Of a stretch of DNA of 23,233 bases, positions 18,427 to 18,959 are shown piece after piece. Source of the stretch: a virus (Duplodnaviria > Heunggongvirae > Uroviricota > Caudoviricetes); IMG/VR virus record IMGVR_UViG_2541047722_000009. One strand, 5' to 3'. Each line of letters starts with the position of its first letter. The first letter of the stretch is position 1. The notes under the pieces were generated by a model. That model was not told the origin of the DNA and searched no databases. It saw nothing but the letters and a program-made list of their open reading frames with translations. The translations under genes were made by a program, and so were the position numbers.

Positions 18427-18959
18427 ATGAACGCAAAAATCAAATACGGCCTGTCAGCTGCAGTTCTGGCGCTGATTGGAGCAGGCGCATCAGCTCCTCA
18501 GATACTTGACCAGTTTCTGGATGAAAAAGAGGGTAACCACACTACGGCATACCGCGATGGTTCCGGCAACTGGACCATCTGTCGGGGGCCACGATGGTGG
18601 ATGGAAAACCCGTTTTTCCCGGTATGAAACTGTCGAAGGAAAAATGCGACCAGGTCAACGCCATTGAGCGTGATAAGGCGCTGGCATGGGTGGAGAAAAA
18701 CATCAAAGTGCCATTGAGCGAACCCCAGAAAGCGGGGATCGCGTCATTCTGTCCGTACAACATTGGTCCCGGTAAGTGTTTCCCGTCGACGTTTTATAAA
18801 CGAATTAATGCAGGTGATCGCAGGGGAGCGTGTGAGGCGATTCGCTGGTGGATTAAGGACGGTGGCAGAGACTGCCGTATTCGTTCAAACAACTGCTACG
18901 GTCAGGTATCCCGTCGTGACCAGGAGAGCGCGCTGGCGTGCTGGGGTATCGACAGATAA
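18427..18959 (+). pseudogene. SAR endolysin (phage 21 R-like lysozyme, GH24) interrupted by a -1 frameshift in a G5 run
   Basis: Track ORFs 18427-18627 and 18594-18959 are consecutive parts in different frames. N-terminal SAR-like hydrophobic segment and E-x8-D-x5-T catalytic pattern (EGNHTTAYRDGSGNWTICRG). One extra G in the run at 18584-18588 would restore ICRGATMVDGKPV…. Confidence 0.8.

Follow-up and report, generated by a model that had tools for sequence, protein, structure and literature searches.

Is the break in the lysozyme frame of this E. coli prophage, which falls within a run of five G residues, a true and inherited defect of the lysis cassette, or has a homopolymer been misread? 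The preliminary description of the DNA analyzed in this work, a stretch of 23,233 nucleotides from IMG/VR record IMGVR_UViG_2541047722_000009 that is termed the window in the following, had put forward both answers. A lambdoid, Qin-like prophage is integrated beside ompW, and its left two-thirds make up the window. Genes for integrase, excisionase and exonuclease are followed by dicB, DicF and ydfABCD and then by the gene for a cI-like repressor (HTH + S24), cro and ydaT. The middle part carries genes for a replication initiator and a DUF977 protein, sok/hokD (11103-11277), genes for DUF968, RusA, a Q-like antiterminator and a DNA methyltransferase, and three tRNA genes (15798-16044). The lysis cassette is next, followed by DUF1398, YlcI and terminase genes. 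Downstream of the tRNA genes, two copies of the STnc100 sRNA (Rfam RF02076, 136 and 161 bits) are present at positions 16123-16313 and 16591-16800.

The lysozyme gene occupies positions 18427-18959 on the plus strand (533 nt as compared with 534 nt for the intact gene), with an ATG start codon at 18427 and a TAA stop codon at 18957-18959. Frame 0 encodes only 66 amino acids (18427-18627, terminating at 18625-18627), namely an N-terminus that is basic at K4 and K6, a SAR segment of weak hydrophobicity from about residue 8 to residue 27 and the residues E35, D44 and T50, which all lie 5' of the frame break. The last twelve residues before the stop, PRWWMENPFFPV, are out-of-frame. The rest of the lysozyme fold, devoid of SAR domain and catalytic triad, is encoded in frame +2, either by a 121-aa ORF starting with ATG at 18594 (18594-18959) or by a 111-aa version thereof, the alternative ATG of which, at 18624, forms an ATGA (18624-18627) together with the TGA stop of the upstream ORF. 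The uninterrupted frame that would be expected for a whole SAR endolysin is lost at the G5 run (18584-18588, C on either side), where the intact allele reads TGT CGG GGG GCC for C-R-G-A. Insertion of a single G results in an uninterrupted protein of 177 amino acids, and exactly this sequence is present on at least 1000 contigs in the protein collection under the name 'lysozyme'. The position of the break, the length of the restored enzyme and the E/D/T pattern reported in the preliminary description therefore all hold. As two ORFs in different frames match successive portions of a known 177-aa protein, each with 100% identity, the arrangement is not a matter of chance. Intact 534-nt copies, for example those of the relatives MS8345 and UTI89, are annotated 'lysozyme' or rrrQ, the latter being the PGAP name for intact copies; the 66-aa product alone did not match any Pfam family. 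Judged from its sequence, the gene is a pseudogene of the SAR endolysin family that does not encode a functional member.

The assignment to this family is based on several features of the restored protein. Residues 33-167 match Pfam family PF00959 (Phage_lysozyme) with 85.7 bits at a cutoff of 22.3, residues 9-174 align with R of phage 21 (PDB 3HDE, E = 3.4e-16), and an alignment is also obtained with RrrD of DLP12 (PDB 4ZPU). SAR endolysins carry two to three basic N-terminal residues followed by a weakly hydrophobic transmembrane domain rich in Ala, Gly and Ser, and the motif E-X8-D-X5-T is canonical for the catalytic site (PMC9239132). In the protein studied here, residues 8-26 comprise six Ala, three Gly and two Ser among 19 residues with a peak Kyte-Doolittle mean (19 residues) of 1.67, and E35, D44 and T50 are spaced exactly as in E-X8-D-X5-T, the motif region aligning with that of R21. 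The SAR segment does not contain cysteine, and the lysozyme is thus not of the disulfide-caged P1 Lyz type.

The gene had been called R21-like, which is correct at the family level but does not name its closest relatives. These are R lysozymes of the Stx-phage/Qin RrrQ type: over all 177 amino acids the restored protein shares 94-96% identity with R of Stx-converting phage 86, of H-19B and of many Stx1 and Stx2 phages. Length, SAR N-terminus and E-X8-D-X5-T motif are shared with R of these Stx/lambdoid phages (phage 86, H-19B and 933W type) and with RrrQ of K-12 Qin; 933W R itself appears among the SAR endolysin constructs described in the literature (PMC9239132). Compared with the Stx-phage enzymes the window copy lacks one G and is out of frame past codon 54. 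Phage 21 R (PDB 3HDE/3HDF) and DLP12 RrrD have the PF00959 fold in common with it, including the SAR segment and the catalytic Glu, Asp and Thr, and phage 21 R resembles the gene studied here also in being partnered with a phage-21-type pinholin. However, both enzymes are only distantly related to it (62.6 bits), and the window gene is a pseudogene. A literature search did not return anything specific to this prophage lysozyme locus.

Apart from the lysozyme gene the lysis cassette appears complete. It starts 0.7 kb upstream of the lysozyme with an intact class II holin (pinholin) of the phage 21 type (17519-17734, plus strand, 71 aa; PF04971, 112.7 bits; identical to WP_000372595.1 loci) with the dual start MDQM (M1/M4), followed by a gene of the YdfR family (DUF1327; 17739-18083, plus strand), an antisense ORF and the lysozyme gene. 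Further downstream lie a terminator-like hairpin (19050-19082, plus strand), a 45-aa hydrophobic ORF (19119-19256, plus strand; PHROG 6632, unknown function) that abuts Rz, the intact Rz i-spanin gene (19258-19722, plus strand, 154 aa; PF03245) and, embedded in the latter in the +1 frame, the intact gene for the Rz1 o-spanin lipoprotein (19478-19660, plus strand, 60 aa; PF06085). Between positions 16718 and 21786 the G run is the sole difference between the window and MS8345, and holin and spanins must thus be regarded as intact; the earlier claim to this effect is borne out by the lack of any single-base difference from relatives with an intact cassette. The antisense ORF (18049-18321, minus strand, 90 aa; PHROG 2411, unknown function; WP_001351274.1 in relatives) is conserved, matches no Pfam family and overlaps the 3' end of ydfR. 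The conserved 45-aa ORF stops 1 nt before the Rz start, and together with the hairpin it forms an unusual interruption of the R-Rz cassette.

The decisive evidence on the nature of the G5 run comes from other assemblies. GenBank scaffold KE699351.1 (GCA_000456885.1) is 100.000% identical to the window over positions 1-18020 and 8624-23233, G5 included, and in this scaffold the end of the window is followed, 2 nt further on, by an N gap. A different assembly that was deposited independently, GCA_903975485.1, contains a contig (CAJCZN010000031.1, loci L067/L078) that differs from window positions 5478-23233 (about 17.7 kb) by one SNP, A to G at 21787, and that carries the G5 run along with the private SNPs 22203A/22502G and a private 260-bp deletion of the window. 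In two loci (L065 and L067) the G5 tract is present, yet the 66-aa gene was not called. Given how closely the two G5 assemblies are related, they represent one mutational event seen twice. On these grounds G5 is very probably a real allele that is inherited within one clone and that originated by a heritable -1 slippage from G6 to G5.

It is improbable, by comparison, that a sequencing or assembly error at the homopolymer conceals a strain that truly has G6 and an intact endolysin. Undercalling of homopolymers is a common artefact, and a match to the G5 run with its 34- and 37-nt flanks was not found among the 5,426 complete genomes of E. coli in RefSeq; among IMG/VR contigs the counts were 0 for G5, 37 for G6 and 3 for G7. 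Several other sightings of G5 stem from noisy assemblies with extra homopolymer deletions. An artefact should, however, be irreproducible and accompanied by further errors of the same kind, whereas G5 recurs in GCA_903975485.1, one SNP apart and accompanied by the private SNPs and the 260-bp deletion of the clone, and all of the 51 other window homopolymers of at least 6 nt, among them four G6, one G7 and two T8 runs, equal those of MS8345 in length, such that only one run in 52 deviates. The window and MS8345 differ by six SNPs in total, three of which are alleles known in other E. coli lineages, and the other private differences of the window are likewise bona fide alleles found elsewhere. 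The comparison with close relatives that had been recommended as a check thus revealed intact G6 in relatives and G5 in a second independent assembly, and of the two answers offered at the outset the real defective prophage is favored.

Not every G5 sighting was accepted as support. Six short Logan contigs matching the 66-aa product were rejected on account of extra homopolymer deletions, C3 to C2 at 18205-18207 (CCCTGGG context) and A4 to A2 at 19043-46, and CP165483.1 (L066), which contains G5 in another prophage mosaic, was discounted as noisy, with many split genes and absent from the RefSeq set. The occurrence of G5 in L066 and in the Logan loci L002, L003 and L072 alongside added deletions of 1-2 nt or split genes implies that a G6 template can also be read as G5 by error. 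The C3 to C2 deletion lies in the context of a Dcm site, occurs in two separate runs and looks like a systematic read error.

The tract varies well beyond the clone represented by the window. G6 was matched exactly in 107 complete E. coli genomes and also in the record of Stx2-converting phage 86, where the CGG GGG GCC run is identical to that of the intact E. coli allele. In R of H-19B (TGC CGC GGT GCC) and in PhiR5_1 (TGC CGT GGT GCC) the residues CRGA are kept by synonymous codons and a homopolymer is not present. As C-R-G-A is conserved while the homopolymer depends on codon choice, G6 must be the in-frame, intact state. An exact match to G7 is found in 34 complete genomes, including those of APEC O1, S88, SF-468, SF-088, ZJ3920, HS13-1, ExPEC XM and the type strain DSM 30083 (both assemblies), and each of the six records examined has this copy labelled 'lysozyme, frameshifted' by PGAP. 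Two assemblies, OZ040396.1 and one from Logan, carry G8, in either case on the G7 haplotype. The G7 pseudogene, present in APEC O1, S88, SF-468, ZJ3920, HS13-1 and DSM 30083, concerns the same prophage, the same gene and the same homopolymer as G5, and it likewise loses the frame past Gly54 and leaves a 121-aa C-terminal ORF. On the other hand, G7 is a +1 allele that is widespread, whereas G5 is a -1 allele of one clone, and no other frameshift is seen in what is annotated of the APEC O1 prophage, while the replication gene is broken as well in the G5 clone. The presence of G7 in a large clade and of G8 in a few genomes, the frameshift annotated elsewhere by PGAP and the broken replication-initiator gene had not been part of the preliminary description.

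The SNP background of the alleles provides information about their origin. Four G7 strains compared over the whole window share the haplotype 1327C, 8289A, 15055C and 22942A; the corresponding alleles are 1327T, 8289C, 15055G and 22942C in the window and in two G6 strains, MS8345 and NCTC11151. Accordingly, G5 is derived from G6, and G7 arose on another haplotype. All six G7 loci covering marker 15055 have 15055C, which is also present in some G6 loci, so that G7 arose within the 15055C haplotype. G7 is furthermore found in somewhat different mosaics (L005, L071), where recombination or recurrence could account for it. The fact that the tract alleles follow SNP haplotypes points to stable inheritance without rapid switching.

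Coding homopolymers that switch the frame, as this one does with G5, G6, G7 and G8 all observed, bear the possibility of a phase-variable contingency tract, in which G6 (on) and G5, G7 or G8 (off) would alternate and switch lysis competence within populations. The existence of four length alleles in nature, of G7 in more than one prophage mosaic and of both G6 and G7 on the 15055C haplotype would fit such a tract. We nevertheless consider it very improbable. Variation in length among very close relatives was not found: the tract is constant in both members of the G5 clone and in both assemblies of the type strain (G7), and G7 follows a SNP haplotype, being tied to 15055C/22942A in each of the six loci just mentioned. 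Classical contingency loci, moreover, usually have tracts longer than six G residues. The C6 run in the overlap of Rz and Rz1 (19604-19609), taken as a control, also varies on rare occasions. Records with exact flanks from complete E. coli genomes comprise 3,453 with C6, 40 with C5 and 3 with C7, that is 43 variant records vs 3,453. Homopolymer indels thus affect spanin genes of related prophages as well, length variants at short G:C runs in prophage lysis genes are not unique to the lysozyme, and the control fits ordinary slippage and decay. The overall pattern of the sequences is one of occasional slippage followed by clonal inheritance and does not resemble rapid phase variation.

Least probable of all is recoding, that is the production of full-length enzyme by a programmed -1 frameshift or by transcriptional slippage, or else a split enzyme composed of the two fragments: if the P-site tRNA-Gly slipped by -1 on GGG, the exact wild-type ...CRGATM... 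would be restored, and the ATGA overlap at 18624-18627 could couple translation of the 111-aa C-terminal fragment, but the search for evidence of programmed frameshifting that had been suggested earlier as a possible refutation revealed neither an X XXY YYZ heptamer at the G5 tract (the in-frame sequence is TGT CGG GGG CCA) nor a downstream fold (80 nt) better than that of shuffled sequence (z = -0.92) nor conservation in the compared homologues, which are in-frame or lack the run, while the G7 allele would require the opposite shift and the two parts of a split enzyme would end up in different compartments, the N-terminal one being exported and the C-terminal one lacking a signal.

With G5 taken as an inherited -1 allele, consequences for lysis can be proposed. 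In lysis of the phage 21/933W type, the SAR lysozyme is exported via Sec and stays inactive within the inner membrane until triggering of the pinholin depolarizes this membrane, upon which the lysozyme is freed and active and the outer membrane is then disrupted by Rz/Rz1 (PMC9239132 and work cited therein). With an intact cassette the freed enzyme would refold and cut the cell wall. In the G5 allele, translation would leave the correct frame after Gly54 and yield a 66-aa peptide that retains the SAR anchor and the triad but misses about 70% of the lysozyme fold, and initiation at the internal ATGs could at best supply C-terminal pieces devoid of both export signal and catalytic residues. Some wild-type protein may still be restored by low-level -1 slippage at the G run. 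Holes formed by pinholins are of nanometre scale only and do not substitute for an endolysin. The cassette would then be unable to degrade murein, and upon induction the cells would be predicted to be killed by the holin but neither to lyse nor to release phage, except where an endolysin is provided by another resident prophage. Loss of the frame should accordingly entail loss of enzyme activity and a lysis-defective phenotype.

The lysozyme is not the only damaged gene of this prophage. A replication-initiation gene (7210-8020, plus strand; PHROG 3729) is broken by a 260-bp deletion with its junction at 7367-7376. In relatives, the intact initiator comprises 356 amino acids and matches PHROG 3729, 'replication initiation protein', from end to end; in the window the gene reads as 60 aa (7210-7392) plus 217 aa (7367-8020). 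An exact look-up of ORF 7346-8020 did not yield a match, gene callers using other starts; the 60-aa and 217-aa products and the 111-aa lysozyme fragment (18624-18959), by contrast, led to scaffold KE699351.1 and to the independent relatives. The junction is at the 10-bp repeat ATGTCACGAC and is located between two arrays of iteron-like TGTCACGNNN repeats. All close relatives that were compared retain the 260 bp missing from the window. Within the clone the deletion recurs in GCA_903975485.1 and GCA_948144355.1 (11.9-kb stretch, 100% identical), and the deleted arrangement is also present, with about 95.6% identity, in Rac-like prophage remnants adjoining ttcA in other E. coli. The prophage of the clone thus probably lacks a replication initiator as well as an endolysin, and the combination of endolysin pseudogene and initiator deletion indicates a decaying, cryptic prophage. 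Defective or domesticated E. coli prophages of the Qin, DLP12 and Rac type are likewise lambdoid, carry dicB/DicF, hokD/sok and ydfABCD and have suffered lesions in lytic functions. Compared with the cryptic prophages of K-12, however, the prophage studied here is much less eroded, and structural genes remain in its close relatives.

All in all, the gene is an ordinary pseudogene, and the prophage carrying it has probably been deprived of both its replication and its lysis functions. Homopolymer slippage is a well-known route of prophage decay, the enzyme family is well known, and the +1 allele of the same tract has already been flagged by PGAP as frameshifted in well-known strains. What is new is an additional allele, -1, at this tract, which on its own matters little. 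It might also be speculated that lysis by the otherwise well-preserved ompW prophage is repeatedly, and perhaps under selection, switched off at the CGG GGG G tract in ExPEC lineages of the ST95 type, given that independent -1 (G5) and +1 (G7, then G8) events occurred and that the out-of-frame state became fixed in a major clade to which APEC O1, S88 and the E. coli type strain belong. If true, this would imply selection for prophages that are lysis-defective but retained, or slow, reversible switching of lysis competence. We regard such a role as unlikely, the alternative being that a slippery site has decayed neutrally. For annotators, positions 18427-18959 should be treated as a true pseudogene and not be 'corrected', and G5 together with the 260-bp deletion in the replication gene can serve as a marker of a specific clone. 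Strains with G5, G6, G7 and G8 furthermore form a natural series for asking if loss of the endolysin alters the outcome of prophage induction in ExPEC.

Some minor differences between the window and its relatives are found outside the two damaged genes. The private SNPs 4666, 4844 and 4850 are clustered between DicF (4537-4588, minus strand) and ydfC. A 261-bp stretch around them is 99.2-99.6% identical to genomes outside ST95 and 98.9% identical to the otherwise nearest relatives of the window. As these three SNPs are known in other E. coli lineages, they are attributed to a recombination patch and not to errors, and the cluster suggests a short patch acquired from another Qin-like prophage. 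Length differences also occur in two intergenic runs: a G7 run at 20465-20471, just 5' of the DUF1398 start and with YlcI/YnfO on its other side, is G8 in two loci (L005, L074), and a T8 run at 21014-21021 is T9 in APEC O1 and NCTC11151.
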